From Candidatus Moraniibacteriota bacterium (GTDB lineage: Bacteria > Patescibacteriota > Minisyncoccia > Moranbacterales > UBA1568): a stretch of 64,000 nucleotides of DNA. Position 1 is the first letter of the stretch; every line of letters begins with the position of its first letter. Shown in pieces: positions 1 to 21,770 of the stretch. Under the pieces are notes generated by a model. It was given only the letters and a program-made list of their open reading frames with translations. It was not told the DNA's origin and searched no databases. The stretch covers positions 456,788 to 520,787 of the forward strand of contig CP064989.1 of assembly GCA_016699875.1 (NCBI GenBank), written 5' to 3'. The position numbers and the translations under genes are program-made.

Positions 1-3000
1 AAGAGTGGCAAACACAAACACATATCTCTTCCGAGCCAAGTGATAGGTGACGATAATAGTTGAAAGCGTAAAGAACGCGATAGCAACAGCATATATCGGG
101 AGAAAGGGCAAGACGGCCGATATTTTCTCGCCAAAGAGAAATTTCGAGAACACTCCGTCAAAAAATCCCAGGAGCAAAACACTCCCGGCAACAACAATTG
201 AAGAAAGCCCGTAGATAATCCAGAATACTTTCTTCGTTCCCTTCCCGAGCCCGCGATTCCTCCCCACAAATGTCACCATGAACATATTCGGCATGGTGCC
301 GAGAAAGAAAATCACTTTGCCGACCAGCGAGAGAAGCGCATACTCCCCGGCACCGCGTTCAGACATGAAGTGCTTTGCCAGAAGCACATCCACTGTGGTA
401 AACATCGCCGTCGAAACCGTTACTAAGATCGCCGCGGAAAAGAACTCTATCGGAAAAGATCGCGACTGCGGGTCGCGAATCAAAGATCTTCCCGCACCGG
501 GAATGAGGAAAAAAGATAAGAATGCGGCAAAGACCACACTTGCCGGTATAGAAAGATATGCATATTCACTTGAACCAAAGAATACAAATCCTAAAGCAAA
601 AACTAACTTACTCCCAGCTTCGATAAGAGAGAGAATCGCCGCAGCTCGAAAACGAAGAGATCCCTGCAGATATCCGAAATTCCCGAATGCCAGAAGTCCG
701 CCTGCGAGAAGCGGCGTAAAAGAAAGCAGAAGCAATGCGTCAGCAACGTGAAAAAACCGAGAAAGTGCCGGAACAGCAAAAAGCCAGAGTGCGGTCACAA
801 AGACAGAAGCGATCAAGCCTATCCGCATGACAGACGCCCAAAAAGTAAGCGCTTCCTTTTCTCCACTTCTCGCAGAGAGATAAGAAACCTCACGATTGAT
901 CGTGGTAGCGAATGGACTGATGAAAACCAATGCAAGATACCAGAGCGTATTCAAAAGTGCAACCATTCCAAGCACCTCAAACGACAACACTCGCCCCAGA
1001 AACGCATTGAATGCAAAATTCAAAATATTGGAAAGAAAGGTGGCCACCACAAAGAGCCCCTCCGCAGAAATCGCGAATGCGATCAGTATCTTTGAGTACG
1101 CACCGGAGGAAATCCCCCGCGATATACGATCAATAAATTGAGACTTCGCAGAAATCCCAGGAACAAACCAAGAGAAACGATTCTGAATTCCCAGGACACG
1201 CTTGTTCCAAGGTGATACGCTCGCGCTTATTGGCAACACGCTGCCCGGCAGATTAGCAGCATCTTCCGGAGAAGCTTTTTTCGAAACCGCATCGACTGGC
1301 TTCTTCTTTCGCTTCAAGAGATGAAGTCCGTGCGTCGTCTTCTCCCAATAGTGCGGCTTCACAAAGAGCTGATATGCCGCCATAACCGCCGCCACCGATA
1401 CCAAGAGCCAATAGAATGGAATCAAGAATACCCACTTCATCAGTTCCCATTTTTCCCGTTTTGCGCAACCGATCATGTAGTAGTACATCGCCAGGAAATT
1501 CCCGAAGATAAGCGAGACTATCGCCATATAGAAGATTGCCGGAGGATAGAGTGCCTCGATGGTCGGACCAACTATTGATCTCAGAGAAAAATACAGAATC
1601 GTCTGAAGCCACAAGATCGGGTTAATAAGCATGAACGCGATTTTCCCGCCGACAATAAACTGGAAAAGCAGCGCGTGAATGCCATTGTCTCGGAAAAATT
1701 TCAGCGGATGCCGCATGTGGACCAAATACGTCTGCATGTATCCCTTAATCCACCGCGATCGCTGGCGAATCCAGTTCCCGACTTTGCTGTTCGCCTCTTC
1801 AAGCGTTACCGAGTCGATAATGGATGTCCGATGTCCGCGCGTGAAAATCCGCGCTCCCAAATCGCAGTCTTCCGTCACATTGAAGGGGTCCCATCCTTCA
1901 AGCGAGAGAAGATCTTCCCGCCGGAAATGATTGCTCGTCCCTCCGAGCGGGATGGACGTCGCGACCGACTGCAAGCCCGGAAGCGTCACATCGAACCACA
2001 GCGAGTATTCCGCCGTGAAAAGCCGGGTCAGAATATTCTGATCGGAGTTGAAATAGTTGAGCTTCGCCTGAAGACACCACACATCGCGCGAGAGGGTTTG
2101 AAAACCGAGATACGCTTTCTTGAGCTGGAGCGGATCAGGAATATCTTCCGCATCGTAGATCACAACATACTCGCCGCGCGTCATCGAAAGACCGTAATTG
2201 CACGCTTTCGGCTTCGTCTTCGGTTCGGAGTGCGGCACCACCACTACGCGCACGAAAGACGGGAGATTCATATCCGTCGCCGCTTGTATCGTTTCCTGGT
2301 CGTTTTCTTCGAGAAGAAGCAGCGCTTCGAGTTTCTCTTTCGGCCAGTCGATTTTCCCAATCGCCTCGAGGAATCCGGGAAGAATATGCGCCTCGCGATA
2401 GAGCGGACAAAGTATGGAATACATCGGGAGATCCTCATCGCGCAGCGCGGCGAGTTCTTTGTCCGAAAAAGAAACTTCCGGTGGCCGTTTAAGACTCCGC
2501 ACCACGAAGAAAGCATTGAACAACACATCGAAGAAATAGATGCTTGTCAGCACCGCTGTCGCCGCAACCAGTGTCGACATCGGACGAACAAAGATGCCGA
2601 CCAAAAGCGCGAGCACAATGCCGGCGAGAACTATTCGCTGCCACGGCATAAACGTGTGAAGTGCCGAGGCATGATGCGGCAGTGTCGAGTGCGTCACGAA
2701 CCGCTTGCGCCGATGGGCAACGCCCGCGCCAATCATGCCGGATACCTTCCCGGCGCCAGCTCCCTCCGGATGGATGTGAAGCGGCTGCCGTTCCCGGAAA
2801 CGCAGCTTCAGAGCATTCCACCCGATTTCTCGAATCGCCTTCCAGAAAACAATTTTCGATTCTCCCGACTTCCGCTCCGCAAACACGATAGAATGTCCGC
2901 CTATTTCATAGCCGTAATTCCGCGCCGTCAGCAAAAACTCGAGATCGAATGTCCATGGATCCGGAGTAATCTTCACTTCGCGAGCGATACGCGCACGAAA

Positions 3001-3477
3001 CACCTTCATGCCGGACTGCACATCAACATCCAGACCGTGCAAAAATTTTGAAAAGACCAGCGCGAATCCTCGACTCAAAATCTTTCGCAATGCGCTTGTC
3101 TCTCGCTCGATCCGATTGGCAACGACGATGTCGGCTCCACCTTGCAACTTCGCATACATCTCGGGAAGCGCCTCGGGCGGATACTGCAGATCGGCATCAA
3201 TCATGGCGATCGTTTCGAAACGCACGTAGTCGAATCCTTCAAGGATAGAATGTGCCTTCCCTCGATGGCCTTTCTTGAGATAAAAAGAAGCGGGGTACGA
3301 TAGCGAAAGTTTTTCAACTTCCGACCGTGTCCCGTCCGTCGAATGATCATCGATGAAAATCACCTCGTACTCGATGTCCGCCGAGCGGAAAGACGCATCA
3401 AGACGGCGGACCAAGTCCGCCACATTGCCCTCCTCATTCAATGTCGGCACCAAAACCGAGATTCGCTCCCGCAGCAT
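1..3477 (-). CDS. Giant fused exopolysaccharide synthase, C-terminally truncated by the window edge. N-terminal GT2 (DPM1-like); central processive GT2 with D,D,D and QRSRW motifs; C-terminal MOP/Wzx-like multi-TM flippase domain.
   Basis: Manual reverse-complement translation from ATG at 3477..3475 (MLRERISVLVPTLNEEGNVADLV...) stays open with no stop down to position 1 (>1150 codons). Motifs seen: ...FIDDHSTDGT (GT2), ...YDAEDIPDPLQL..., NWIRQRSRWIKG (QxxRW), then a hydrophobic region with ...LLAKHFMSERGAGEYALLSLVGK... typical of Wzx/polysaccharide-biosynthesis (MOP) proteins. Not in the ORF track, presumably because no in-window stop exists. Confidence 0.7.
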   Translation of the reverse strand, partial: MLRERISVLVPTLNEEGNVADLVRRLDASFRSADIEYEVIFIDDHSTDGTRSEVEKLSLSYPASFYLKKGHRGKAHSILEGFDYVRFETIAMIDADLQYPPEALPEMYAKLQGGADIVVANRIERETSALRKILSRGFALVFSKFLHGLDVDVQSGMKVFRARIAREVKITPDPWTFDLEFLLTARNYGYEIGGHSIVFAERKSGESKIVFWKAIREIGWNALKLRFRERQPLHIHPEGAGAGKVSGMIGAGVAHRRKRFVTHSTLPHHASALHTFMPWQRIVLAGIVLALLVGIFVRPMSTLVAATAVLTSIYFFDVLFNAFFVVRSLKRPPEVSFSDKELAALRDEDLPMYSILCPLYREAHILPGFLEAIGKIDWPKEKLEALLLLEENDQETIQAATDMNLPSFVRVVVVPHSEPKTKPKACNYGLSMTRGEYVVIYDAEDIPDPLQLKKAYLGFQTLSRDVWCLQAKLNYFNSDQNILTRLFTAEYSLWFDVTLPGLQSVATSIPLGGTSNHFRREDLLSLEGWDPFNVTEDCDLGARIFTRGHRTSIIDSVTLEEANSKVGNWIRQRSRWIKGYMQTYLVHMRHPLKFFRDNGIHALLFQFIVGGKIAFMLINPILWLQTILYFSLRSIVGPTIEALYPPAIFYMAIVSLIFGNFLAMYYYMIGCAKREKWELMKWVFLIPFYWLLVSVAAVMAAYQLFVKPHYWEKTTHGLHLLKRKKKPVDAVSKKASPEDAANLPGSVLPISASVSPWNKRVLGIQNRFSWFVPGISAKSQFIDRISRGISSGAYSKILIAFAISAEGLFVVATFLSNILNFAFNAFLGRVLSFEVLGMVALLNTLWYLALVFISPFATTINREVSYLSARSGEKEALTFWASVMRIGLIASVFVTALWLFAVPALSRFFHVADALLLLSFTPLLAGGLLAFGNFGYLQGSLRFRAAAILSLIEAGSKLVFALGFVFFGSSEYAYLSIPASVVFAAFLSFFLIPGAGRSLIRDPQSRSFPIEFFSAAILVTVSTAMFTTVDVLLAKHFMSERGAGEYALLSLVGKVIFFLGTMPNMFMVTFVGRNRGLGKGTKKVFWIIYGLSSIVVAGSVLLLGFFDGVFSKFLFGEKISAVLPFLPIYAVAIAFFTLSTIIVTYHLARKRYVFVFATL

Positions 3478-3822
3478 GAACTTCACTCGTGGACAACCGT
3501 TTCAATACCAAAGAAATTCCCGAAAGACAGCCCTCTCAGTTTTTGTCTTTTCTGTATTTCCAACTGAAACGCGACGCAGCGTGCCCGAATATATGGATGA
3601 ACTCTGATGATATACTCTCGACTCCATGAGTGTCAATGTTGACGCGAATCGACTATTGGGATATGATCGCACCCTAAACAATTCCGTCCCTGAAAATTCC
3701 AGTAACTTCCCAGCTCAAAAAAGGAGCGCGTCATGCCCTCGCCTGGCAGTCATCCGCCAGCAAAAAGATCACTTCTCAAACAAACACACCCTGCCGAGAC
3801 AAATCGTTTCGGCAGTATTTTT

Positions 3823-5760
3823 TTATCGAATATCGCGGAAACTTTTCGTGAACGGCCGCTTAAAAAAGAGCACCCACAAATGGTTCACGGTATACACGGA
3901 TGCAGCACGAAACACGCCCTCGCGATTCAATCGGCGTCCCGATGTCCGCATCGGAAGAGAAAAGGTGAATCGAACACGCCCCTCCTTCTGAATACGGCGT
4001 GCAATATCCGTATCCTCTCCAAAAAAAGTGATAGTAACATCAAACCCGCCTATTTTTTCCAGAGCTGACCGTCTCAACACAAAGTTTCCACCTTGAATCA
4101 GCGCGCCCGATCGAAGCACGTGATGATTGAATAAATGAAAGAGAAAACCCGCCGAATAGTAGAGCCGTATGAAGAAATTCGTCACCGGCGAAATATCATA
4201 ATAAATGTATGGGCCGCTCAATGCCACTAAATTATTCTTCCTTGCAAACTCAGCCAAGACCCGATCAATCCACCCCTTCGGTATCAGAGAGTCCGCGTCG
4301 ATATTGGCGATAAGAGCGCCTCTCGACGCGAGGAATCCGGCCTGTCGTGCTCGAGAGAGACCCTTTTGCCATTCGTCTACGACGACAACTCCGGGAAACC
4401 AAAGCGCAATCTCCCGCGTTCGATCCGTACTCGCGTTGTTCACCACGATCACTTCGATACTCCGGCGACTCTCACTCACTCTCTGCAAGACCGTCCGAAG
4501 CGTTGTCTCAAGAAATTTCTCCTCATTGTATGCGGGAATGACAATACTGAGAACCGGCTCACCTGTCTCGGACACTTCTCCCAGAATCGTTCGGAATATT
4601 CGCTCCCATTCATTCGCAACCGCCGATGCGGAAAACTCGCGCACAAAGTTTCTCCCGTTCTCACCAAGCCGCATCATCTCTTCCGGATAAGAAAAAAGAT
4701 AGACCATTCTCTCCGCAAGACCAGCCGTATCGCCGGGAGCAACAATAAACCCGGCATTCTTTGGTACGTATTCCGGCAACCCATACGCATCCGCGGCAAT
4801 CACCGGCAATCCCGAAGCAAACGCATGCATCATGCTAAGGCACTGCGTCTCCGCTGTACTCATCACCGTAAAAATATCCGCCGCCCGATACACGTCGGAA
4901 AATTCCTCGCACTCCAAATAACCCAGAAAATGCACGCTTTCCTCTATGCCAAGCTTCTTTGCCAATTGTCGAAGCGACGGCTCGGCAGAGCCATGACCGG
5001 TAATGGCACACGAGATATCCGGAATCGATTTCTTAGCAATCGCCATCGCTCGAAGCACGACATCGATATTCTTTTCCTGCGCAAGCCGACCCGTGTAAAG
5101 AAGCGCATGTTCGGACAATCCGAATTTTTTCTTCAGTGCGACCTTTTCATCCGGAGAACCGCTTGAAGAAAAATCCGAAAGCTCCAACGGATTGGAAAGC
5201 ACGCGCGACTTCGAGCGAAAACCAAACGATTCCATTTCAGAGAGAAGCGCGCGGCACGGCGCACTTACGAAGACACAGTGCCGATAATACCAGTTCACAT
5301 ATTTCATCCCGGCGTTCTCGAGTCGCTTCCATCGGACCGGCGCATACTTGAGAAATTCGAGAAGCGGCGTGTGATTCGTTCCGACAATCATCTTTTTGAG
5401 AAGCTTCGATAGAAGAAGCGCTTCGAGTCCGGCGCCGAAGAAGAGCTGCGTATATATAATATCCGGATCAAATCTTTTGATATGCCGATAACTCGAAAGT
5501 ATCGGGAGTACGAGCCGCCCCTGCTTGGTCGGAGCCGCTTTGTACGGAAGTGAGAACAGTCGAAAAATTTCGATATTCTCGCCGAGATCCAATTCGCGAA
5601 ACGGCAATTTCGAAACAGCAAAATCGCGCCGCGAGTACCGCGGGACATAAAAAACGATTTTGTGTCCGCGTGCCGCGAGCTCCCTCGCGAGAGAGATAAT
5701 GGAATCGGATATCCCGCTCATCTCCGGATAGAAGTTGTCCGAAAATATCGCGATTTTCAT
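3823..5760 (-). CDS. Bifunctional glycosyltransferase: N-terminal GT4 (GT-B fold), C-terminal GT2 (GT-A, ...VLSIVIPAYNEEKFLETTLRTV...)
   Basis: ORF track frame 3823..5805. Start refined to MKIAIFSDNFYPEMSGISD at 5760 with GAGGTGA RBS 7 nt upstream. GT4 and GT2 signature stretches seen. Confidence 0.75.
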   Translation of the reverse strand: MKIAIFSDNFYPEMSGISDSIISLARELAARGHKIVFYVPRYSRRDFAVSKLPFRELDLGENIEIFRLFSLPYKAAPTKQGRLVLPILSSYRHIKRFDPDIIYTQLFFGAGLEALLLSKLLKKMIVGTNHTPLLEFLKYAPVRWKRLENAGMKYVNWYYRHCVFVSAPCRALLSEMESFGFRSKSRVLSNPLELSDFSSSGSPDEKVALKKKFGLSEHALLYTGRLAQEKNIDVVLRAMAIAKKSIPDISCAITGHGSAEPSLRQLAKKLGIEESVHFLGYLECEEFSDVYRAADIFTVMSTAETQCLSMMHAFASGLPVIAADAYGLPEYVPKNAGFIVAPGDTAGLAERMVYLFSYPEEMMRLGENGRNFVREFSASAVANEWERIFRTILGEVSETGEPVLSIVIPAYNEEKFLETTLRTVLQRVSESRRSIEVIVVNNASTDRTREIALWFPGVVVVDEWQKGLSRARQAGFLASRGALIANIDADSLIPKGWIDRVLAEFARKNNLVALSGPYIYYDISPVTNFFIRLYYSAGFLFHLFNHHVLRSGALIQGGNFVLRRSALEKIGGFDVTITFFGEDTDIARRIQKEGRVRFTFSLPMRTSGRRLNREGVFRAASVYTVNHLWVLFFKRPFTKSFRDIR

Positions 5761-5777: not shown

Positions 5778-8129
5778 TCAGTCCCGCTCCCCGCGAGCAA
5801 ACCAACGCGCAAGAACATATTGGAGAAGCGTATAGACGAATAATACCAAAGAAAACCTGACTGAGGCATCAGGAGAAATCGGCGGAATATCGATTTCAAA
5901 GAATCGCAAAACCAACGGGACATGAAGAGCTATCGGAAGCAATATCGCCTCGAAGAGCGCGAGCAGTACCAAATCTCTCATCTCCGAAGGCGCGAGCTTT
6001 CCCCGGAAAACCCTCGGGACAAAGAGGAAGAAAATAAATCCCAAAATAAGCGAAGCCAGAACGATGAGGAAATTCGACGGCGAATTTTTCAGCTGTTCGC
6101 CACTCAGAGCAAAGATAAATCCCAGAGCAACCGCCTGCAGCAATGACGACGAGACTACGAAAGGAAGTACTTTTCTCAAGAAATTTCCCGCATGCGCAGC
6201 AACTGCTTTCCCTGCCGGACGGATCGTCCAGTATGAGATAAGAATACTCGGGAAGCCGATAGTAAAATAATTGATAAGCGTCATATTGAGCGGCGTGAGC
6301 GGAAAGGCGTAGCCCAAAATACTGACCCACACGAAGAGAAAAAATCCCGTAAATGAAAAACTGAAAAAGATGCTTGCAAAAATCTCCGCGTTTTTGATAA
6401 TGCTGTCCGCCAATTCCACGCCGCCCGGAAGCGCCGTGAAACTATTGTTTGTCAACACAATCGAAGCAACCTGACGTGTCGCCGGAGCACCTTCAAACAT
6501 CGCGATACCGAGATCCGATTTCTTGAGCGCCAAAGCATCGTTCGCGCCGTCGCCCACCATCGCCGTAAATCCATCGTCTTTCAACGCTTCAACAATCCGC
6601 TCTTTCTGCTCGGGAAATATTCGCGCAAAAATAGTCGTATTCCGCACGCGATCTCCGAATTCTTCCTCTGTCCACTGATCGATATCCGCACCCGAGACCA
6701 CGCTGTCGGTTTCAAGAACACCTGCCGACCGAGCAATGGCCCGTACCGTCTCCGCATGATCGCCCGAGAGGATGCGAATACGCACTCCACGCTTCTGAAA
6801 GAACTCGATTGCTTCACGGATGCCCGGACGAAGCCGGCTCGAGAGAACGAAAACGCCGAGCAGAGAAAGTTTCGACTGCGCGATATCCTGAGGAATACCC
6901 ATACCATCCGAAAGGGCGATACAAAGAAGCCGATTCCCCTCACGAGCTTCCCGAGACAGGATGTCCTGCAGCCACGATTGTTCCGATGCGGCAATGAGCT
7001 GCGGGATCATTACTTCGGCAGCTCCCACCACGAGCACCATCGTATCTCCCGATACATCCCTAAATGACACTGCACCAAACCGACGCCACGAAGAGAAAGG
7101 CAGTCCATCAATTTTAACCCCCTTGAAAGAGTCATTGGTAAGAAGCTTCCGTACAGCAAGAGCGGTCTGAGATGTGTCATTTGTCCCATCAAGATATGCC
7201 GTCATGTATTCGAACGACTTCGCCTCCGGCGCACCGTCAACAGACAAAAACCGCTCCGCCGTGAGCCCGTTCTCACAAAGCGTTCCCGTCTTGTCCAGGC
7301 AGAGATTCTTGATACGCCCGAGTTTCTCCGTCGCATTCACTTCCTGCAGAAGCACGTGCCGGCGAAAAAGATGCGCCGCTCCATAAGCGAAGAGAAGCGT
7401 CATGCCGAATGCCAACCCCTGCGCCACGATCACGCTCGCGAGCGCGCCGACATGCTTCACGATATTCACATTCGACTCATGTGCCATGACACCGCGAAGA
7501 ACCGCAAAAGCAATGACAACGACCAGTACATACCCGGAATATCGGATCACCATATTGACCGACTTCTGTATCGGACTCTCGGCAACCGATGATCGCTGCA
7601 CTCCCTCCGTCATACGCGCAATGCGACTCTCGGCAAACACCGTCTCCGCCCGCATCAGACCGGCACCGGAGGTAATAATGCTTCCCGCAAGCACCCGCTC
7701 CCCCGCTCCGCGCGGCAACGATGTCGACTCGCCCGTAATAAGCCCCTCATTCAGCTCAAGTGATTCCGACGATACCAATACGCCGTCACACGGTATCTGA
7801 TCGCCCAAGCCGAGACGAAGCATATCTCCCTTCCGAACATCTTCCGTAAGAACGGATTCCTCGACACCGTCGCGAATACGATTCACATGCGGCGCCGTCA
7901 AAAGCTGGAGCTTTTCAAGCGCGCGCCACGCACGAATATCCTGTCCGAGACCAAGCAGCATATTGATCACGGTCACCAGCCCCAAGAACAATCCTGCCTG
8001 CCGATCACCAAATACAAAGAGAAGCGCCACGACTGTCAGGATAACGCCGTTTGTCAAAAGGAATACATTCCTCGATACGATATACCACAAATCCCGAATT
8101 TTTTTCACGCGCGGTGTCAGCATAAGCAC
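5778..8129 (-). CDS. P-type cation-transporting ATPase (P2-like; short N-terminus starting near TM1)
   Basis: Motifs ITGES (A-domain), CLDKTGTLCENG (DKTGT phosphorylation site), MVGDGANDALALKKSDLGIAM (hinge), multiple TM helices. 783 aa. Confidence 0.9.
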   Translation of the reverse strand: MLMLTPRVKKIRDLWYIVSRNVFLLTNGVILTVVALLFVFGDRQAGLFLGLVTVINMLLGLGQDIRAWRALEKLQLLTAPHVNRIRDGVEESVLTEDVRKGDMLRLGLGDQIPCDGVLVSSESLELNEGLITGESTSLPRGAGERVLAGSIITSGAGLMRAETVFAESRIARMTEGVQRSSVAESPIQKSVNMVIRYSGYVLVVVIAFAVLRGVMAHESNVNIVKHVGALASVIVAQGLAFGMTLLFAYGAAHLFRRHVLLQEVNATEKLGRIKNLCLDKTGTLCENGLTAERFLSVDGAPEAKSFEYMTAYLDGTNDTSQTALAVRKLLTNDSFKGVKIDGLPFSSWRRFGAVSFRDVSGDTMVLVVGAAEVMIPQLIAASEQSWLQDILSREAREGNRLLCIALSDGMGIPQDIAQSKLSLLGVFVLSSRLRPGIREAIEFFQKRGVRIRILSGDHAETVRAIARSAGVLETDSVVSGADIDQWTEEEFGDRVRNTTIFARIFPEQKERIVEALKDDGFTAMVGDGANDALALKKSDLGIAMFEGAPATRQVASIVLTNNSFTALPGGVELADSIIKNAEIFASIFFSFSFTGFFLFVWVSILGYAFPLTPLNMTLINYFTIGFPSILISYWTIRPAGKAVAAHAGNFLRKVLPFVVSSSLLQAVALGFIFALSGEQLKNSPSNFLIVLASLILGFIFFLFVPRVFRGKLAPSEMRDLVLLALFEAILLPIALHVPLVLRFFEIDIPPISPDASVRFSLVLFVYTLLQYVLARWFARGERD

Positions 8130-8401: not shown

Positions 8402-9460
8402 CTACTCTTTACAGAGCTCCTCAAACAGCCTTCGATCTTCATCGGTCAGTACCGGTTTCTGCTCGCCAACGGACGGATACATAATGGACGTACTCTCCGC
8501 CGCATGTCCAATGCCAAGCGCGTGCCCCATCTCATGCGCCAGAATAAGCACCAAGTCGTCGTGATCGTAGAACTGGAACACGTCGATATTCGCGCCGGAA
8601 GCATCTTTGGTATAGAGTCCGGTTGTAAATTCCTCGCGCGCGCCGGACACCTGGTTATACGTATCAACGGTCAAGTTGAGCGCGCTTGCCATGCGATTGA
8701 GACTCCCCGCCGCCGTATTCACCTGCCCGGAAAGCACATTGAGCGCAGCATATTCCTTCGCGAGCGCCGACTTCTCATCATTCAATCGCTTGCGTTCGTC
8801 ATCGATATCAGATGCCTCCTTCTTGAGATCCTTCCGCTCATCTTCCAATTCCTCATACTCGTCGGGAGGTGCACCGCCTTCGGCATTCCACTGCGCAACC
8901 AATCGCTCATACGATGCCAGTCGATCTTGATATTTCTCGACACGCCGTTCATAGTCGCGGAGCTTCTTCTCATACGAAGACACGTGTCCGTCATAGGCGA
9001 ATTTCTTCCCATCAAACTCTTTGCGGAGTGCATTATACTCGGAACGCAGCGACTCATAGGCGGATTTCCGGCTCTCGATATCCGATGATGTTTCTTTGAG
9101 AGAATCTGTTTCCGCCTGCCGATCATCAAAGACAAGATTGATCGGGATCGCATCGGTATCGGTGCTTTCCATAAGAAGGTCTCGACCGGTCCCCGATTCC
9201 CATATCGCCTCGGCCTCATGAATCGCCTTCAAAAACTCCGCTTCCGAGAGATGGAAATTCGGATCAATAGTCCCCACCCGATACTCAAGCGGAAACCGAC
9301 ACGAATCATCAAGTGCCGGAATCACTTTGGAGAGCACTGCCCGAGAAGAAGACACTGTTGGCATCTTCCCCGTCTTCAGAGCAAATACGACTGCAAATGA
9401 AGACGCCAAGACAACTAAGGAAAGAAGAACAGCTCGAATCGTTCGAAAGAAGAATGCCAT
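8402..9460 (-). CDS. Secreted or membrane-anchored zinc metalloprotease, metzincin/matrixin-like, with central coiled-coil region
   Basis: N-terminal hydrophobic signal/anchor (MAFFFRTIRAVLLSLVVLASSFAVVFA). Long charged heptad-like segment (KEFDGKKFAYDGHVSSYEKKLRDYERRVEKYQDRLASYERL...). C-terminal HEMGHALGIGH (HExxHxxGxxH) followed by Met-turn SIMYP. Confidence 0.7.
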   Translation of the reverse strand: MAFFFRTIRAVLLSLVVLASSFAVVFALKTGKMPTVSSSRAVLSKVIPALDDSCRFPLEYRVGTIDPNFHLSEAEFLKAIHEAEAIWESGTGRDLLMESTDTDAIPINLVFDDRQAETDSLKETSSDIESRKSAYESLRSEYNALRKEFDGKKFAYDGHVSSYEKKLRDYERRVEKYQDRLASYERLVAQWNAEGGAPPDEYEELEDERKDLKKEASDIDDERKRLNDEKSALAKEYAALNVLSGQVNTAAGSLNRMASALNLTVDTYNQVSGAREEFTTGLYTKDASGANIDVFQFYDHDDLVLILAHEMGHALGIGHAAESTSIMYPSVGEQKPVLTDEDRRLFEELCKE

Positions 9461-10209: not shown

Positions 10210-11589
10210 ATGCATCAAATATCCGAACTCAGCCAATTCTCAATCGAAGAGCTTACCAAAGTGGAAGGCGCTGCCGGACTCAATGTGTTTATCGAAAATG
10301 GAAAGGTGCAAAAAGTGGAATTCGCCATCAAAGAATTCAAGCGTTTCTACACGCACGCCATGGAAGGCAAACCGATCGCAGCGATTCCTCAGCTCCTTGC
10401 GCGCATCTGCGGTACCTGTTCGAACGCACACCTCGTCGCAAGCATCGAAGCCGTCGAGAAGACGCTCGGCATTGTTCCGAGCGAGCAGACCATGCTTCTG
10501 CGCACCCTTACCTATCATGGACTCATCATTCGCGATCATGCGCTCCACCTCTACCTCTTCTGTCTTCCCGACTTCTTCGGCAAAGACTCGCTCTTGGGAT
10601 TTGATGATGACGACCCCATACAACACCAGCTCCTCCATGACGCCTTCGCCGTGAAAGCCGCCGGCAACCACCTCGCAATCGCCGTCGCCGGGCGAAGCGT
10701 CCATGCGCCCCTCCCCATGCCCGGCGGCTTCGGAAAAACTCCCGATACGAAGTCCATCACTGAAGTCATCATCGAACTGGAAAACATTCGCCCGGCAGTG
10801 CTCCGCCTCATCAAAGTCTTTACCGACGATCCGTCATCACTCGTCCGAAAAAGCAACTACGCCGCCCTCCGCAACAGCAAATTTTCCTACCTCGAAGGCG
10901 ACCTCTGGGATATGAAAGGATTCGTCGTTGACGAGGCGGGCTATCGCGACCATCTAGAGCACGTTGTCCTGCCATACTCCCAAGCTTCCGCCTACACGTT
11001 CGACGGCGAAACCTACCGCGTCGGCGCGATCGCTCGACTCAACATCAATAGCTCCGGCCTCCACCCACGCACCAAACACGACGCCGCAGAGGCGATCGCA
11101 CTGTTCCCTTCCAACAATATCTTTCACAACAATCTCGCCCAGGCGATCGAAATCCTCCACTCCGTCGACGAAGCGATTGATCTCCTCAAACAGAAAACCT
11201 TCCAGCCCGAACCGCCACAGAAAATCGTCCCGAAAGCCGGCATCGGCGTAGGACTTGTCGAGGCGCCCCGTGGCGCGCTCTACCACAAGCTCGAAGTAAA
11301 CGACAAAGGCATCGTCGAGCGCGGCGAGGTCGTCGTCCCGACCGGTCAAAACCAGATCGCCATCGAACTCGACCTCATCCAATTCATCAATGAGCACATG
11401 GACATGGAGGAGTCCGCCATAAAACTCGAGTGCGAAAAAATAATCCGCGCCTACGACCCCTGCATGTCCTGCGGCGCCCACTTCCTCGAACTCAAAATGA
11501 GCACCAACGGCTCGAGGCTCAAAAAGGTAATTTCAAAGAAACAAGCCGCCAAAAGTGACCCACAAAAACATCTCCCACATCATCACTAG
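10210..11589 (+). CDS. [NiFe]-hydrogenase large subunit
   Basis: N-terminal L1 motif RICGTCSNAH (RxCGxCxxxH) and C-terminal L2 motif DPCMSCGAH (DPCxxCxxH), followed by a ~35 aa C-terminal extension, the usual substrate of the maturation endopeptidase. Confidence 0.9.
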   Translation: MHQISELSQFSIEELTKVEGAAGLNVFIENGKVQKVEFAIKEFKRFYTHAMEGKPIAAIPQLLARICGTCSNAHLVASIEAVEKTLGIVPSEQTMLLRTLTYHGLIIRDHALHLYLFCLPDFFGKDSLLGFDDDDPIQHQLLHDAFAVKAAGNHLAIAVAGRSVHAPLPMPGGFGKTPDTKSITEVIIELENIRPAVLRLIKVFTDDPSSLVRKSNYAALRNSKFSYLEGDLWDMKGFVVDEAGYRDHLEHVVLPYSQASAYTFDGETYRVGAIARLNINSSGLHPRTKHDAAEAIALFPSNNIFHNNLAQAIEILHSVDEAIDLLKQKTFQPEPPQKIVPKAGIGVGLVEAPRGALYHKLEVNDKGIVERGEVVVPTGQNQIAIELDLIQFINEHMDMEESAIKLECEKIIRAYDPCMSCGAHFLELKMSTNGSRLKKVISKKQAAKSDPQKHLPHHH

Positions 11590-12189: not shown

Positions 12190-12609
12190 TCATCTTAGCA
12201 CTGTCGCCAGCTCCCGAATGACATCCGGAAGCGCCTGTTCCTCACTCATACTTTCCGGCACGCCGAGGATATTCGGTTCAAAGGACGGATCGAGCTTCTT
12301 CGCGAGGAGAAGCAATGTCGAGAGATCGTAGTCGTGTGCCGTCATCCCGGCATTGCGGGATCGGGCAATGTCATCGACTGAGAGCCACGATACTTTCTCA
12401 AGTCCTCGAACCGTGTCGAGGATAACCCACTTTCCCCGCTTCGGCAAGTCTATTTCATTGGGGTCTTCAATAACAAAACGTGCGTGCGGAAATCGTATCC
12501 GAAGATTCGGAACCAATTGCACCGGCACGCTATCCGAAGAAAGATCCGGATTGCCAAAAACCGATACCGAAAACGCCTCGTTATTTCTTTCGCTCATAGG
12601 CATTGGCAA
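12190..12609 (-). CDS. Putative hydrogenase maturation endopeptidase (HycI/HybD/HoxW family, peptidase A31-like), divergent
   Basis: Alignment-by-eye to the family pattern. SVFGNPDLSSD matches the GxGN..D N-terminal motif; VILDTV matches the conserved D in ..DAI.; MTAHDYDL matches the PHQ/H..L His motif; NILGVPESMSE matches the VGVxPESL motif. About 139 aa, as expected for the family. Confidence 0.5.
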   Translation of the reverse strand: MPMPMSERNNEAFSVSVFGNPDLSSDSVPVQLVPNLRIRFPHARFVIEDPNEIDLPKRGKWVILDTVRGLEKVSWLSVDDIARSRNAGMTAHDYDLSTLLLLAKKLDPSFEPNILGVPESMSEEQALPDVIRELATVLR

Positions 12610-13423
12610 AGGCGATGCTCTTCAATGTATATGCACGCAATCGAGCGACGGTTTGCTCCGAAAGCGTCTCGCACGGCACGCCCCAGTGAATCGACACCCA
12701 TGCGCCGGGCGCGAGCAAATCGATATCGATATCCGCGGAAAGATCGCGCACCAGCCGGCGAGAAACAGGGTGGCCAAGAAAAAACGCTCCGCGCTCATCG
12801 CGAACAAGCGGCTCCGTAACGACATCGATAAACGGCCCGGAAACGGCAGCAACCTTCCCCCAGCTCACGATGCACTCGGCAACCGCCGTCCAGTCACCAT
12901 CATGAAGCAACTCGTGATTTGTCTCACGCCACACATTGAGCACATGAAATGAGTGGTGTGGAAAACCGCCTCGCACCACCTTTTGCCCGATCGTGTCGAA
13001 TCGCTCCCGCCCCGTCTTTTTCTTCACCTCGAGCGCATCGAGCAATCCCAAATATTTTCTCGGTGAAAATGCGTCGAGCAAACGATTACCGATCCAATAT
13101 GCCTCGACCACCTTGTCATCAAACGGATCACGAATACCGTTCCCCTCCGCGATATGTGAGAGATACGGATAAAGATTTTGAAATCGCTCAAGGATAGCCG
13201 AAAGTCGCGGATCGCTCTCGCCCGCGTCCAAATATTCCTTCATCGTTTTGTTCGCGTCGGGCCCGCAGTAGTGCAGCCGATTCGGCCCGAATGCATACCG
13301 GCTGCATCGAAACACTCCATCCATATCTTTCCACTCTACGCGAACCCCAAAAAAAGCGCAAAAAACACGCCTAACCAGAAACCAGTTAGGCGCATGCCGA
13401 ATGCTAGAGTCAGACTGACGCAA
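12581..13423 (-). CDS. Hypothetical protein with conserved Cys/His clusters (CSRYAFGPNRLHYCGP; FPHHSFHVLNVW; HELLHDGDW)
   Basis: ORF track. Probable true start is the internal M at MDGVFRCSRY (~13324). No family recognised. Adjacent to, and co-oriented with, the putative hydrogenase protease. Confidence 0.4.
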   Translation of the reverse strand: MRQSDSSIRHAPNWFLVRRVFCAFFGVRVEWKDMDGVFRCSRYAFGPNRLHYCGPDANKTMKEYLDAGESDPRLSAILERFQNLYPYLSHIAEGNGIRDPFDDKVVEAYWIGNRLLDAFSPRKYLGLLDALEVKKKTGRERFDTIGQKVVRGGFPHHSFHVLNVWRETNHELLHDGDWTAVAECIVSWGKVAAVSGPFIDVVTEPLVRDERGAFFLGHPVSRRLVRDLSADIDIDLLAPGAWVSIHWGVPCETLSEQTVARLRAYTLKSIAFANAYERKK

Positions 13424-15736: not shown

Positions 15737-17647
15737 TCATTCTCCCGTAAGACTCTTGAGCAGAGCGCTAAGTCGCATCGATGCGACGCCGACCACGCGA
15801 TCAGCACCGCCATAATATATGAAGATTTTTCCGGCATGAAGCGTCGCACCGCAAGGAAAAACAACATTCGGAACAATGCCGACTTTCTCGTATTCCATTT
15901 CCGGCTCGAAAAGAGGCGAATCACTCCTTGCGAGCACGCGCTCCGGGTGATCGATATCGAGCAAGGCCGCGCCCAGCCGATACACCGACCCCTCGCTCGA
16001 AACACCGTGATACAAAAGAAGCCATCCGCGATCAGTCCGGATCGGAACCGTATTGAGTCCGATTTTTTGATCATCCCACATACCCTGCCTCGGCAGAATA
16101 AATGGGCTTTGCGATAACATCGATCCTCCGGAAAACTCCAGATCATCAAAGAAGTTAATGTCTATCGACGGTTGTATCCGATGAAGCACCACGTATTTCC
16201 CACGAATCTTCTCCGGGAAAACACAAGCGTCCTTGTCATCGATACCCGGTGGCGATATAAGCTTCGGCAATGTCCAACGATGCCACTGTTTCGCGAGAAA
16301 TTCTTTTCGCCCAAGAGAAGTAATCGCCACACGGGGAGCATTCGCCCCATCCACTGCCGTGTAGAACATAAAAATCGTATCGTCGATGCGTGTGAGTCGC
16401 GGGTCCTCGCATCCGGAATAGCCTCCGCCAGCCCGCATCTCAAAAGGCTCCCGCGGCACATAGGCCGGCTCCGAGCTTCGCTCGTCAATGGTCAAACCGT
16501 CACGGCTCGACGCATATCCAAAGACCGATGTATCGCCATTCGAAAGCGCGCGATACATAATATGCGTTCTCCCGCCATCCCGGATAACCCCCGGATTGAA
16601 TACTCCTTTCGCCTCCCAAGCATGCTCCGAAACAGGCGAGAGAACGGGATTCTTCGGAGCGCGCTCGAAGGAGAGTTTTCTGTTTGGATACGAAAGCGAC
16701 CGAAGCAACTTCTTCGCGTCACACGTGGCAACACAGCAAGTCGAGTCGGCTGCACCGTAGTAAAGAAACAATTTTCCACGACGAAGAATAGCTCCTGACG
16801 GAAAAACAATATTCGGAACCTTTCCATACAATTCATACTCTTCTTCGGGCACAAGAAGCGGCGCATCGGTCCTCGCAAGTATTTTTCGCGGGTCACTTCG
16901 ATCAAGGAGAACCGCCTCAATGCCGAATATCTTTCGCTCAGTAAAATAATTCCGTATATGCGAATAAATCAAAAGCCACCCGTCTTCCGTGAGGAGAGGT
17001 GAAGCACCGATCTCAACATGATCGGAATCGCCCCGTTGAAGTCGAATCTCATGCGCCGAAAGATTCGAATACCATGCATTCCAATATGCTTCGGACCATA
17101 TATCTTCAATGCTATCAAACAAAGCAAGCCCGATGGTGGATGGCGGACGATCGGTATTTGCCGTCAATATCGCCGCAAATTTCCCATTCACCTTCTCCGG
17201 GAAAAGCGTCATGGCTTTCGCATTGAAAGGCGTTACCAAGTGCTTCTCATCCACTCTTCGGAGATCTTTTGAAAGCGCTACCGCCACTTTTATTCCTTCT
17301 GCTGAAAACGGGTATGTCGAAAGCGCCGTATAGAAAATATAATAGGTTCCATCTATCGCTGTGACACGGGGATCCTCGCATCCGAATCGTTCCCATGATT
17401 CTTCAGGAAGAATAAATTGGCGATGTTTCTCAAAATGAATCCCATCAGCACTCATGGCACATCCGATCGAAGACACTTCATACGTTTCTCCTTCGTGCAG
17501 TACTCGCGACGACTGCGCCCGATACACCAGATCAATCCACTTTCCCCTCTGCACCGGACAGCCGTTAAACGCTGCGGATCGCTCCCAAAAATTTCCACTC
17601 TCCCCAACCAGAACCGGATTCTCATTCGATCGTTCAACTCGAATCAT
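15737..17647 (-). CDS. Double-module GH130 family glycoside hydrolase/phosphorylase (two tandem GH130 beta-propeller modules in one 636 aa protein)
   Basis: Two copies of GH130-like signatures: FNGCPV...GCEDPRVTAIDGTYYIFYTA, and GVFNPGVIRDGGRTHIMYRA...GCEDPRLTRIDDTIFMFYTAVDG...DKDACVFPEKI. Confidence 0.75.
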   Translation of the reverse strand: MIRVERSNENPVLVGESGNFWERSAAFNGCPVQRGKWIDLVYRAQSSRVLHEGETYEVSSIGCAMSADGIHFEKHRQFILPEESWERFGCEDPRVTAIDGTYYIFYTALSTYPFSAEGIKVAVALSKDLRRVDEKHLVTPFNAKAMTLFPEKVNGKFAAILTANTDRPPSTIGLALFDSIEDIWSEAYWNAWYSNLSAHEIRLQRGDSDHVEIGASPLLTEDGWLLIYSHIRNYFTERKIFGIEAVLLDRSDPRKILARTDAPLLVPEEEYELYGKVPNIVFPSGAILRRGKLFLYYGAADSTCCVATCDAKKLLRSLSYPNRKLSFERAPKNPVLSPVSEHAWEAKGVFNPGVIRDGGRTHIMYRALSNGDTSVFGYASSRDGLTIDERSSEPAYVPREPFEMRAGGGYSGCEDPRLTRIDDTIFMFYTAVDGANAPRVAITSLGRKEFLAKQWHRWTLPKLISPPGIDDKDACVFPEKIRGKYVVLHRIQPSIDINFFDDLEFSGGSMLSQSPFILPRQGMWDDQKIGLNTVPIRTDRGWLLLYHGVSSEGSVYRLGAALLDIDHPERVLARSDSPLFEPEMEYEKVGIVPNVVFPCGATLHAGKIFIYYGGADRVVGVASMRLSALLKSLTGE

Positions 17648-17691: not shown

Positions 17692-19548
17692 CTACTCGTC
17701 CCCCAATTTCACATACCGTGTCGGCACTACCTTATTCGAATGAAGCAGCGCATCAAGCAACCGAGCAATCGGCACAGTCGCCACACACGTCACCGTATCG
17801 GCACTTCCATAGTATACAAAAAGTGTTTCATCCTTCACAACCGCCCCACAACTATAGACAATGCGAGGCTTTGTCCCCTCGTTTTCATACCACACCTTCG
17901 GTTCAAGAATTGCCGCCTTTGATCGGGCAATCACTTTCGTCGGATCCTTCTTATCAAGAATCATCGCTCCGAGTTTGTATCCGCAGTCCCGAGTTGTCGC
18001 ATGGTAGAGCACGAGCCACCCCTCTTTTGTTTTTATCGGCGACGGACCGACACCGCGCACAAGCAATTCCCATCGTCCCTTAAGTGGCGTCTTAACATGC
18101 TCGCTTTTGATAAAAGTCTCTCCGTCAAAATCGAGATTGTCGAGATAATCGATGCGCACTTCGGGGCTGATGCTATGAAGCACAGCAAACCTCCCGTGAA
18201 TTTTCTCGGGGAATATGGTCCAGTTTTTGTGAATTTCCCCAGGCGGCGAAATCATCACCGGGCGCGACCAATTCCATTTTTTCGCCAAAAAGTCATCAAC
18301 GGAAATCTTTGTAAGCGCCACTCGCGGAAAATTATACCCATCAAATGCAGTGTACGTCATATAGAGCGTATCCTCGATACAGGTCACTTTCGGATCCTCG
18401 CTTCCTCCCCATCCGCTACCGGAAGCATACGGCGTCGTACATGACTCTTGAATCCTCGTTACCTTCACATCATCGAGGGTTGGCGAAGAAACATAGATGG
18501 GCACATCAAGTCGCTCATGTATCGAGAAACCGTCACGACTATTGGCGTAGCCGACCGTCGACAAACCATTCTTTCCGATCGCACGGTAGAGAATATGCAC
18601 CATGCCATCATCAGAAAGGAACGCTGCCGGATTAAAGACCTCGCCCGCCTCCCAATCATACTCCTTTCGAGAAGCAAGAATGGGATTTCCCGCATAACGT
18701 TCGAGCTTCATGCTATCGGGAACAACGGACACCGAAGCATTTCTGGAAACTTTCCAAAATTGAGCGATTTCTTCCACAAACAGCTTCCCATCAACACTCC
18801 AATACACGAGGACTTTCTTCGCCCGCAAGACAGACCCGATATACCGCACATCCTTCCCAATCCACGAATCGGGAGACTCCCACAGAGCTTCCTCCGACCG
18901 CCAGAGAATCGTTTTCGGATTCTCTTTCTCTGCCAAAGCAGAACCGAGAAGCCATCGCCCATCATGAGTTTCGGAAGCGTACAGAAGAATAATTCCATTC
19001 CCGGCAGGAATCGCCGCCACAAGACGTATCGGCCCCTCGTCGAAATATCCTTCGCGAGGTTTCAAAATTGCCGAGCGCTTTATATTCCAATGTTTCAAAT
19101 CGGTCGATACTGCCAATTTCACAGTACGCTCGCCAAAGAAAAACCCATACTTTTCTCGCCCTGCTTGCAAAGAAACAACTCTTCCCGTCTCGCGCAAACC
19201 TTCTATGTCCGAGATATCGCTCCATTCAATGCCATCGGAAGAAAACCCTGATGCACTTCGAAAAGTACCATCACTTGTCTTTCTCTTACAAGAAAGAAAA
19301 AAAGAATCTTCCGCAGAAGAAATTTCCGAAATACAAAAAACATCCGAAATATCCGGACGCAGACGAAGACTCCCCAAAAGTCTCGTAAAAATAAACTCTT
19401 TCTGTATTGGCTCAAAGGAGATTCCGTCCAAACTACTCAGAACAGATATTGGCCGATTCGATTTCCCTTGGGAATCACGCACATAGAGATATACATTCTT
19501 CCCAACTGACGAAACTCCAAGAACCGAACGGTCCAGAGAACGCTCCAT
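17692..19548 (-). CDS. Second double-module GH130 family protein (paralogue of 15737..17647)
   Basis: EVFNPAAFLSDDGMVHILYRA...GSEDPKVTCIEDTLYMTYTAFDG...HKNWTIFPEKI, plus an N-terminal second module. 618 aa. Confidence 0.75.
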   Translation of the reverse strand: MERSLDRSVLGVSSVGKNVYLYVRDSQGKSNRPISVLSSLDGISFEPIQKEFIFTRLLGSLRLRPDISDVFCISEISSAEDSFFLSCKRKTSDGTFRSASGFSSDGIEWSDISDIEGLRETGRVVSLQAGREKYGFFFGERTVKLAVSTDLKHWNIKRSAILKPREGYFDEGPIRLVAAIPAGNGIILLYASETHDGRWLLGSALAEKENPKTILWRSEEALWESPDSWIGKDVRYIGSVLRAKKVLVYWSVDGKLFVEEIAQFWKVSRNASVSVVPDSMKLERYAGNPILASRKEYDWEAGEVFNPAAFLSDDGMVHILYRAIGKNGLSTVGYANSRDGFSIHERLDVPIYVSSPTLDDVKVTRIQESCTTPYASGSGWGGSEDPKVTCIEDTLYMTYTAFDGYNFPRVALTKISVDDFLAKKWNWSRPVMISPPGEIHKNWTIFPEKIHGRFAVLHSISPEVRIDYLDNLDFDGETFIKSEHVKTPLKGRWELLVRGVGPSPIKTKEGWLVLYHATTRDCGYKLGAMILDKKDPTKVIARSKAAILEPKVWYENEGTKPRIVYSCGAVVKDETLFVYYGSADTVTCVATVPIARLLDALLHSNKVVPTRYVKLGDE

Positions 19549-20882: not shown

Positions 20883-20907
20883 AGCATCTGTACAATTCAA
20901 AAGATAA

Positions 20908-21645: not shown

Positions 21646-21770
21646 TACAGGAGACGCCCTGGAATACAACCTTCCGAAAATCGCAAGAACAACACCGATC
21701 CATGACCTCCGCGAAATATCTAAGCTCACAATACAGAGATATTCGGAATCCCCAACACGAAACTATTTTT

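Follow-up and report, generated by a model that had tools for sequence, protein, structure and literature searches.

A conserved four-module glycosyltransferase and transporter fusion of Patescibacteria, with a possible role in a hybrid glycan pathway

We have analysed a 64,000-nucleotide stretch of contig CP064989.1 from a Candidatus Moraniibacteriota bacterium (assembly GCA_016699875.1, positions 456,788 to 520,787 of the forward strand), referred to here as the window. Its left end is occupied by a large minus-strand gene for a membrane-bound glycosyltransferase (GT) fusion. The encoded part makes up three quarters, from the N-terminus, of an inner-membrane enzyme with four modules that is typical of Patescibacteria. 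The modules follow one another in the order GT2a - GT2b - MOP - GT4, with the GT4 domain falling outside the window. The gene and its modules are as follows; TM stands for transmembrane, AF2 for the AlphaFold model and pLDDT for its predicted local distance difference test score.

1..3477, minus strand: large gene, 5' part (1,159 codons); open frame, 86% identity at 100% coverage to the 1,602-residue homolog P0001
2773..3477, minus strand: GT2a, GT-A domain resembling polyprenyl-phosphate glycosyltransferases, residues 1-235; Pfam, PDB matches, Foldseek
2638..2772, minus strand: short linker with a beta-hairpin, residues 236-280, from GT2a to the first TM pair; AF2 secondary structure
1324..2637, minus strand: GT2b, BcsA/hyaluronan synthase (HAS)-like synthase, residues 281-718; Pfam, profile, Foldseek
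1108..1323, minus strand: disordered, Lys/Arg-rich variable linker, residues 719-790; pLDDT below 50 at 722-790
1..1107, minus strand: putative MOP-superfamily transporter, helices 1-10 and the start of helix 11, residues 791-1159; hydropathy, Pfam matches of homologs, AF2/Foldseek

The minus strand reads from position 3501 to position 1 without a stop, over 1,167 codons. The probable start is the first in-frame ATG (3475-3477, minus strand; translation MLRERISVLVPTLNEEGN..., MLRERISV...), which gives the same N-terminus as in the homologs P0001 and P0002; from there 1,159 codons lie within the window, and the gene passes beyond its left edge. An earlier reading of the DNA letters and open frames (the sequence-only reading) had reported an unbroken frame of more than 1150 codons with no in-window stop, and had described it as a triple fusion of a DPM1-like GT2, a QxxRW synthase-type GT2 and a C-terminal flippase of the MOP type. 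The frame is as described, and Pfam, PDB matches and Foldseek agree that the three domain types share one polypeptide; the number of modules and the end of the protein need revision. The homologs are about 1,600 residues long and run some 440 residues further, a GT4 domain included, which makes four modules and leaves the transporter internal. In the homolog alignment the window breaks at residue 1159, within helix 11 of the 12 helices of the MOP module, and about 440 codons, those of the GT4 domain among them, are predicted to be missing past window position 1. The AlphaFold model of the in-window protein has a mean pLDDT of 86 and is confident in all three in-window modules.

Homologs were sought among 5.8 billion proteins, the best 120 matches were aligned and each of their segments was measured. 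The closest relatives, about 1,550-1,680 residues long, reach 86% identity at 100% coverage of the window protein; all named relatives are Patescibacteria (Moraniibacteriota, Moranbacteria, Niyogibacteria and Parcubacteria), and the closest belongs to Candidatus Moraniibacteriota. The four modules are found in one order in 118 of the 120, the remaining two being truncated, and the C-terminus of the relatives is formed by the GT4 domain pair PF13439 and PF00534. In P0002, for example, Pfam scores this off-window module as Glyco_transf_4 (7.4e-14) and Glycos_transf_1 (9.6e-42), and its relatives in the PDB include MshA, PimA and BshA. GT2a measures ~235 residues in the homologs, the linker that follows it a constant 40 or so, and GT2b with its TM helices 435-437 in essentially all 120; the linker before the MOP module varies from 11 to 198 residues, and the MOP helical bundle and the GT4 measure about 400-430 and 370-390 residues, respectively. 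GT2b is the most conserved module of the family, with 32% invariant positions, followed by GT4 (23%), GT2a (16%) and MOP (4%); R829, K957 and D1030 are among the conserved residues of the MOP module.

Independent assemblies, from NCBI and from Logan, hold the same gene at 86% identity over its whole length. Because of this, and because of the conservation of module order, a frameshift artefact is excluded and the fusion is evidently real and conserved; the worry over a frameshift or missed stop raised in the sequence-only reading is answered by the 118 complete proteins with identical module order. More than 593 loci were counted in species-representative genomes. Database entries name the homologs just 'glycosyltransferase', and full-text searches of the literature found no description of this covalent four-module combination. 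We note separately that many metagenome-assembled genomes (MAGs) in which the full fusion occurs bear record titles of 'uncultured Gammaproteobacteria', 'Bdellovibrionales' or 'Verrucomicrobiia' (loci L004-L008, L013-L015, L024-L026 and others); judged by their gene content and by contigs of ~1 Mb, these titles look like placeholder or wrong taxonomy.

Both GT2 domains of the large frame, which the sequence-only reading had proposed for testing with hidden Markov models (HMMs), are supported by Pfam. GT2a matches Glycos_transf_2 (PF00535) over residues 7-137 at 2.9e-34 and carries a DAD motif at 3190-3198 (residues 94-96). Searched against the PDB as a single sequence with phmmer, it matches the dolichyl-phosphate mannose synthase DPMS (5mlz, 1.1e-21), ArnC (1.2e-18) and also GtrB; the family profile raises the first two to 1.2e-38 and 1.2e-32. 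Foldseek places ArnC, GtrB and DPMS alongside the model at a root-mean-square deviation of ~3 Å over ~225 columns with 23-27% identity. Downstream of the domain come an amphipathic helix (211-227) and a TM pair (278-330) that doubles as the N-terminal pair of GT2b, and in the intervening linker (236-280) pLDDT is low solely at 240-245. Every score against the NCBIfam equivalogs is far under its cut-off; weak matches, likewise well below cut-off, include AglJ (TIGR04182, 9.1e-17) and a haloarchaeal dolichyl-phosphate hexose transferase. On these matches GT2a is a putative polyprenyl-phosphate glycosyltransferase domain of the ArnC/GtrB/DPMS type, from which its activity is predicted.

In GT2b, two TM helices precede a GT-A domain, after which come interface helices and three or four C-terminal TM helices. 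Pfam recognizes it over residues 353-636 as Glyco_tranf_2_3 and Glyco_trans_2_3 (5.7e-30 and 3e-17). The D,D,D and QRSRW motifs claimed earlier are in place, as DAED (2143-2154), TED (1867-1875) and QRSRW (1750-1764), together with PLGGTSNHF (1924-1950) and YWEKTTHGL (1324-1350). A profile built from stand-alone versions of GT2b matches E. coli BcsA at 6.2e-22 in an alignment that extends into the TM helices that follow, and pairs KPKACNYG with HAKAGN, DAED with DCDH, PLGGTS with FFCGS, TED with TED and RQRSRW with GQRIRW. The D, DxD, TED and QxxRW motifs and the acceptor-binding loop thus stand in canonical order, and they are invariant across 61 homologs. Foldseek matches are the Chlorella-virus (Cv-HAS) and Xenopus hyaluronan synthases and BcsA, over ~450-475 columns. 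Scores against curated equivalogs are far below cut-off for all (PgaC, 87 bits vs 422; CelA, 59 vs 699), and no curated NCBIfam equivalog was found for the GT2b subfamily that has GT-C partners. We classify GT2b as a putative BcsA/hyaluronan-synthase-type polymerase with its own TM helices, and export of the polymer by the same module is predicted from this likeness.

The MOP assignment is the part of the sequence-only reading that had rested on the reader's eye: a MOP/Wzx flippase was called, and the fold is borne out by Pfam matches of homologs and by AF2/Foldseek, while HMMs on the window copy are negative. Pfam returned nothing relevant for the hydrophobic C-terminal 400 or 500 residues of the window protein at E<=10, and P0001, 86% identical to the window copy, likewise gave no match in this region at permissive E. 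Against the PDB, both the single sequence and a 20-sequence profile of the region hit orexin-receptor/GPCR chains only, which we discarded as compositional, and no MOP chain. MOP-clan Pfam families are nonetheless matched by nine of 20 diverse homologs, with a best E-value of 1.8e-8: Polysacc_synt (PF01943) in four, MatE (PF01554) in four and Polysacc_synt_3 (PF13440) in one. The homolog P0011 passes the Polysacc_synt threshold (32.7 bits vs a cut-off of 28.2). PF01943 or PF13440, the families that define Wzx/PST by sequence, thus occur in five of the 20, the window copy matching neither.

When the whole 1,159-residue model was submitted to Foldseek the two GT2 domains dominated the matches, and the MOP region was therefore modelled separately, as residues 785-1225 of P0001, an 86% identical region that contains the complete module. 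The model has a pLDDT of 87.7 and a predicted template modelling score of 0.87, and its top 50 Foldseek matches in the PDB are all MOP transporters (PfMATE, MurJ, WzxE), aligned over the full length with TM-scores of 0.57-0.72. The prediction of a 12-helix transporter with the Wzx/MurJ/MATE fold is solid. Its orientation can be read from CPR (Candidate Phyla Radiation) versions of the fusion that have no MOP module: there GT2b is joined to GT4 by a linker of 60-94 residues with no TM or hydrophobic helix. GT4 enzymes require cytoplasmic nucleotide sugars. The C-terminus of GT2b should therefore be cytoplasmic, as GT4 follows it without a TM helix, and the MOP module should in turn be N-in/C-in with GT4 and all other GT domains on the cytoplasmic side. 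On these comparisons the topology is coherent, every GT domain being cytoplasmic.

Which genes accompany the fusion was scored across 48 CPR loci from species-representative genomes, in many of which the flanks are cut short. The closest complete genome, CP064974.1 (Moraniibacteriota, 1.11 Mb; locus L001), aligns collinearly with the window. There, genes for DUF6390, hydrogenase, M10 peptidase, P-type ATPase and GT4-GT2 are followed by PAP2_C and the 1,602-residue fusion gene, and these in turn by a 298-residue GT2, a CE4 deacetylase, methyltransferases, an SDR protein, a GT4, two polytopic proteins of ~540 residues (TM541 and TM542) and a secreted CarboxypepD_reg protein. Strong orthologs of TM541 are found in 37 of the 48 loci, of TM542 in 32, of the 298-residue GT2 in 25, of the CarboxypepD_reg protein in 23 and of the CE4 deacetylase in 14; for the GT4-GT2 gene and the P-type ATPase the figure is two each. 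Pfam and PDB sequence searches with the two ~540-residue proteins of L001 gave no match. TM541 is homologous to Firmicutes proteins that match PMT_2 (phmmer, 1e-8 to 1e-16), and TM542 has a weak NCBIfam match to the LA_3751/2 putative GT family. The predicted conserved partners of the fusion, all beyond the window, are thus the 298-residue GT2, two GT-C-like membrane proteins and sometimes the CE4 deacetylase. No Pfam family for an initiating phosphoglycosyltransferase, Wzy or a chain-length regulator was found within 10 kb on either side of the gene in the relatives L001-L003.

The CarboxypepD_reg protein lies 3' of the GT-C-like genes (L001 23004-24278; secreted or anchored, 424 residues) and combines a C-terminal CarboxypepD_reg domain with an unassigned domain of ~300 residues. 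Synthase systems usually include a glycoside hydrolase or binding protein, and by analogy this protein could be one.

Domain HMMs made from the family were applied to all fetched loci as well as to the best 150 representatives of the MOP clade, which comprises 677 clusters at 50% identity (E<=1e-30). With both GT2 modules present, we find GT2a-GT2b-MOP-GT4, GT2a-GT2b-GT4, and GT2a-GT2b followed by a separate MOP-GT4. In the states without GT2a, GT2b is fused as GT2b-MOP-GT4 or GT2b-GT4, or stands ahead of a separate gene for MOP-GT4 or for a lone MOP. Further states join MOP to the 298-residue GT2, directly or as MOP-GT4-GT2, and MOP stands alone in 72 of the 150 representatives. We had considered the MOP fusions of ~730 residues as MOP-GT2a; this was rejected when scoring with separate profiles assigned their GT2 domain to the 298-residue type. 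Since nearly all fusion and fission states occur, in the manner of a Rosetta stone, the modules probably act together and form a single functional set centred on the flippase, which is thereby placed between the synthase and the soluble-type GTs.

The set can also be followed outside Patescibacteria. GT2b occurs at ~45-57% identity in Chloroflexota, Solirubrobacterales, Paraconexibacter, Aquificota and Bacillota, where an N-terminal extension usually precedes it. Desulforamulus aeronauticus encodes two PMT_2-like (GT-C-like) genes, an MshEN-GT2b fusion, a BcsB-like protein (PF03170, 8e-45), a GT2a fused to a GtrA/DPMS TM domain, ManC and phosphomannomutase (PMM), and Sporolactobacillus encodes GT2b, GT2a-GtrA_TM and PMT_2. 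In a Solirubrobacterales MAG, a 710-residue ORF (L083 14158-16287, minus strand) combines a MOP-type module with a GT2a-like domain and adjoins a GT2b gene; its full-length MOP match (48.8 bits, 1.3e-13) is the sole one outside the CPR among 35 loci. Paenibacillus macquariensis has a nucleotidyltransferase, a DUF4388-MshEN-GT2b protein (~768 residues) and a GtrB/PgfS-like GT2 (L079 7528-19959), a three-gene set that is tandemly duplicated and then followed by a PMT_2 GT-C gene; the cyclic di-GMP (c-di-GMP)-binding MshEN motif scores above the NCBIfam cut-off. Because these loci combine the parts, and because TM541 is homologous to the PMT_2 proteins found there, the association of synthase, lipid-phosphate sugar synthase, flippase-type module and GT-C protein predates the CPR fusion. 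As an observation in its own right, the P. macquariensis locus looks like a polysaccharide system under c-di-GMP control, apparently uncharacterised, in a Firmicute that is in culture.

The reading that we prefer, to which we give a probability of roughly 45%, is a hybrid pathway in which synthase-type export of a backbone and a lipid-linked sugar route are carried by one polypeptide, with GT-C transfer outside. GT2b would use a nucleotide sugar to polymerise a backbone glycan, which it would thread through its own channel, while on the cytoplasmic side GT2a would charge polyprenyl phosphate with a sugar. Extension of the lipid-linked sugar might fall to the tethered GT4 and to the 298-residue GT2 encoded next door, the MOP module would flip the resulting sugar or oligosaccharide, and the two conserved GT-C-like polytopic proteins of the off-window genes would transfer it outside the membrane, either to the exported polymer or to another envelope molecule. 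The co-occurrence of a flippase and a processive synthase, paradoxical at first sight, would be resolved since the flippase can serve a GtrB-like enzyme instead. By analogy with known systems the flippase is better explained in a GtrB-type, lipid-monophosphate GT-C decoration route beside the synthase, and a multi-component set is indeed encoded together, GT2a and the flippase in one protein and the candidate GT-C TM541 in 37 of the 48 loci. The conservation gradient, with GT2b far above MOP, fits a constant backbone and a flipped substrate that varies with lineage.

A stronger version, which we regard as doubtful, is that the fusion would be a single assembly-line protein for a major phylum-wide glycopolymer of Patescibacteria. 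A BcsA-type channel would then be physically coupled to a lipid-monophosphate route made up of AglJ/GtrB-like initiation, GT4/GT2 extension, Wzx-like flipping and GT-C transfer, and backbone export and side-chain delivery would be locked stoichiometrically and spatially. No such arrangement was found in the literature searched for any bacterial glycan pathway.

Several observations weigh against the hybrid pathway. MOP and GT2a do not strictly co-occur: loci with GT2b-MOP-GT4 and no GT2a nearby exist, as do GT2a-GT2b-GT4 loci with no MOP. The MOP module is also fused to GT4 or to the 298-residue GT2 more often than to GT2a, and for this reason the flipped species may not be the direct product of GT2a. 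By sequence, the domain could be either a Wzx-type flippase or a MATE-type exporter, MatE and Polysacc_synt being equally frequent among the homologs (four of 20 each). TM541 and TM542, finally, are called GT-C-like on pairwise homology to PMT_2-matching proteins and on a weak NCBIfam match, and the partner genes are placed by syntenic relatives rather than present in the window.

A rival scheme, which we consider unlikely, has one lipid-linked pathway only. GT2b would be a membrane-anchored, non-exporting, NodC-like enzyme, all GTs would build one polyprenyl-linked glycan, the MOP module would flip it, and the GT-C-like proteins would ligate or polymerise it outside. The MOP module does sit directly after GT2b and before GT4 and is often fused to the 298-residue GT2, an arrangement that would suit enzymes passing a single substrate to the flippase, and no BcsB-like or other export partner is seen in the CPR loci examined. 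However, GT2b retains all the hallmarks of BcsA (KAxN, DxD, the G[ST] loop, TED and QxxRW), and its match to HAS and BcsA covers ~450 columns, channel-forming helices included. Moreover, the Desulforamulus relative adjoins a BcsB-like gene, and many genomes, both CPR and non-CPR, have GT2b with no MOP nearby.

It is distinctly unlikely that the activities are independent, serving separate envelope glycans or including a MATE-like exporter, and were fused by genome streamlining for co-expression rather than for channelling. This would accommodate the existence of every pairwise fusion and fission state, the lineages that have one or another module missing from the locus, the disordered and highly variable linker of 11-198 residues before the MOP module, and the parity of MatE and Polysacc_synt matches. 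Yet the module order is fixed, and in more than 30 of the 48 CPR loci the set recurs and is followed by the same genes. The link of GT2b to GT2a and to GT-C genes also extends across several phyla, a distance over which one would not expect independent functions to remain together.

Next to the large gene the window carries a second GT gene, which the sequence-only reading had taken, together with the first, for a self-contained two-gene exopolysaccharide machine merging synthase-dependent and Wzx/Wzy logics. The features concerned are:

3823..5760, minus strand: GT4-GT2 glycosyltransferase, 645 residues (GT4 ~4576-5760, GT2 ~3889-4560); Pfam
3791..3815, strand not assigned: 10-bp GC-rich hairpin, possible terminator, directly after the GT4-GT2 stop; scored on the plus strand, the minus-strand T-tract being weaker
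3607..3636, minus strand: candidate sigma-70-like promoter, TTGACA-18-TATCAT, ~130 nt upstream of the large-gene ATG; a consensus scan (11/12), that is, a pattern match only

That the neighbour is itself a GT4-GT2 fusion was read correctly: Pfam gives Glyco_transf_4 (5.8e-22) and Glycos_transf_1 (9.2e-33), then GT2 (6.7e-28). Against the PDB it matches generic GT4 and GT2 enzymes, the GT4 relatives including MshA, PimA and BshA. A P-type ATPase gene (5778-8129) ends 17 nt before its ATG, and in L001 the two called genes overlap; for these reasons the GT4-GT2 gene appears to share a transcript with the ATPase, not with the large gene. L001 has, between GT4-GT2 and the large gene, a gene for a 217-residue PAP2_C-domain membrane protein. 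We sought a remnant of it by comparing window positions 3478-3825 with L001 9155-9834 and found none, ~180 bp of the window there being unalignable.

The two-gene machine is very improbable. In its favour, two genes full of GT domains lie side by side on one strand, and the adjacency is kept in the two closest relatives. But strong GT4-GT2 orthologs are confined to two of the 48 CPR loci, and the genes have a hairpin and a promoter-like site between them, which argues against a functional unit; a PAP2_C gene is inserted between them in L001, and the window gene adjoins a P-type ATPase. The large protein, moreover, extends off the window into GT4, and the initiating phosphoglycosyltransferase, Wzy and chain-length regulator that Wzx/Wzy logic would call for are not annotated in the syntenic locus. 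The GT4-GT2 gene is predicted to be an accessory, lineage-specific neighbour and not a conserved partner. As for an assembly or sequencing artefact joining separate GT and flippase genes, other genomes do have split forms (GT2a-GT2b plus MOP-GT4, among others), but the frame is unbroken across 1,167 codons, the gene is 86% identical over its full length to independent NCBI and Logan assemblies, the fusion is shared by 118 of the 120 best relatives and the AF2 model is confident over all in-window modules (mean pLDDT 86), which puts this explanation practically out of the question.

Some other genes of the window deserve mention. A gene similar to the NiFe-hydrogenase large subunit (10210-11589, plus strand; PF00374, 9e-27) is present in what appears to be a CPR genome of ~1 Mb, and its L001 copy adjoins an Oxidored_q6 small-subunit gene. 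Two tandem GH130 genes of the beta-mannoside phosphorylase family (15737-17647 and 17692-19548, both minus strand; 636 and 618 residues) each have an N-terminal extension of ~300 residues and match PF04041 at 7e-99 and 6e-49, respectively; they are possibly relevant to the glycan, as a Firmicute relative of the synthase operon has GDP-mannose synthesis genes. An M10 matrixin-like peptidase with a DUF4407-like region (8402-9460, minus strand) and a DUF6390 protein (12581-13423, minus strand) are both syntenic with L001, and a MacB/FtsX permease with an HlyD-like adaptor is encoded at 19629-22904 (minus strand).

Patescibacteria spend their lives attached to other microbes and rely on contacts at the cell surface, and to our knowledge almost nothing has been established experimentally about their cell envelope. 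The fusion is among the larger conserved CPR proteins, ~1,600 residues in genomes of ~1 Mb, and its family occurs in many CPR classes, including Saccharibacteria. If the hybrid pathway is correct, it would provide a testable candidate for the main surface glycan of the CPR and a natural case of synthase-dependent and lipid-carrier-dependent routes in one polypeptide. The natural split and fused variants are a ready guide to domain dissection, and Saccharibacteria can now be grown and mutated (PMC10633639). The non-CPR relatives of the synthase in Chloroflexota, Actinomycetota and Bacillota, at ~45-57% identity and with conserved GT-C neighbours, include none that has been characterised. Every module comes from a known superfamily and the logic has precedents in separate proteins; it is the covalent combination that is undescribed in the literature searched. 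A new principle would follow only if physical coupling of the two routes were demonstrated. Other patescibacterial systems are mentioned in the Lipocone paper. The essential exopolysaccharide cluster of Southlakia (SEML1_0079-0083) was considered as a relative and set aside, being of the ordinary Wzx/Wzy type and unrelated.

Among known systems, the Wzx/Wzy pathway of O-antigen, capsule and enterobacterial common antigen shares the 12-helix MOP fold (TM-score 0.61-0.72 to WzxE), and some CPR homologs match Polysacc_synt (PF01943). Very low sequence conservation is usual for Wzx, and the MOP module resembles it in this respect. Unlike in Wzx/Wzy systems, the window copy fails the Pfam models, and the syntenic locus has no annotated initiating phosphoglycosyltransferase, Wzy or Wzz/PCP. 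Assembly of the dolichyl-phosphate-linked N-glycan of Haloferax volcanii starts with AglJ; soluble GTs then lengthen the monophosphate-linked sugar before it is flipped and a GT-C enzyme transfers it. With this route the likeness is one of concept, by analogy: the organism here is bacterial, and no AglB/PglB-type oligosaccharyltransferase was identified.

Comparable in operon logic to the Firmicute relatives of GT2b is the Listeria Pss system for a branched exopolysaccharide, in which a GT2 synthase works with a BcsB ortholog and with a receptor for c-di-GMP (PMC4125290) and the product is a ManNAc backbone with Gal branches (PMC13492145). The CPR fusion differs from Pss in having no c-di-GMP module of any kind.

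The multi-component transmembrane glycosylation systems GtrA/GtrB/GtrC, CsbB/GtcA/YfhO and GacI/GacJ/GacK/GacL share with the CPR set a GtrB/ArnC/DPMS-like GT-A enzyme, a flippase and a multi-pass GT-C protein, and GT-C-like genes are the most conserved CPR neighbours. Within GacI/GacK/GacL, one of the systems of Gram-positive bacteria, the Wzx-type flippase GacK has been proposed to act on C55-P-GlcNAc, an undecaprenyl-phosphate (C55-P) monosaccharide (PMC8035078). It is the only Wzx-type precedent that we cite; Lactococcus CflA was considered as another MOP-type flippase and dropped, as a review assigns it to the GtrA type. Unlike in these systems, the CPR GT-A enzyme and flippase are part of one protein with the backbone synthase and GT4, the acceptor polymer would arrive by a synthase-dependent route rather than by an ABC transporter or Wzy, and the putative GT-C partners are off-window and assigned by homology.

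BcsA, class I hyaluronan synthase and PgaC/IcaA, finally, have the same GT-A core with flanking TM helices as GT2b, and the Firmicute relative of GT2b brings the likeness to BcsA-type systems closer with its BcsB-like neighbour and N-terminal c-di-GMP-binding MshEN domain. The CPR form differs from BcsA-type systems in having neither PilZ nor MshEN, with no BcsB seen in the CPR loci, and from BcsA, HAS and PgaC alike in that its synthase is covalently joined to a predicted polyprenyl-phosphate sugar synthase, a MOP transporter and a GT4.

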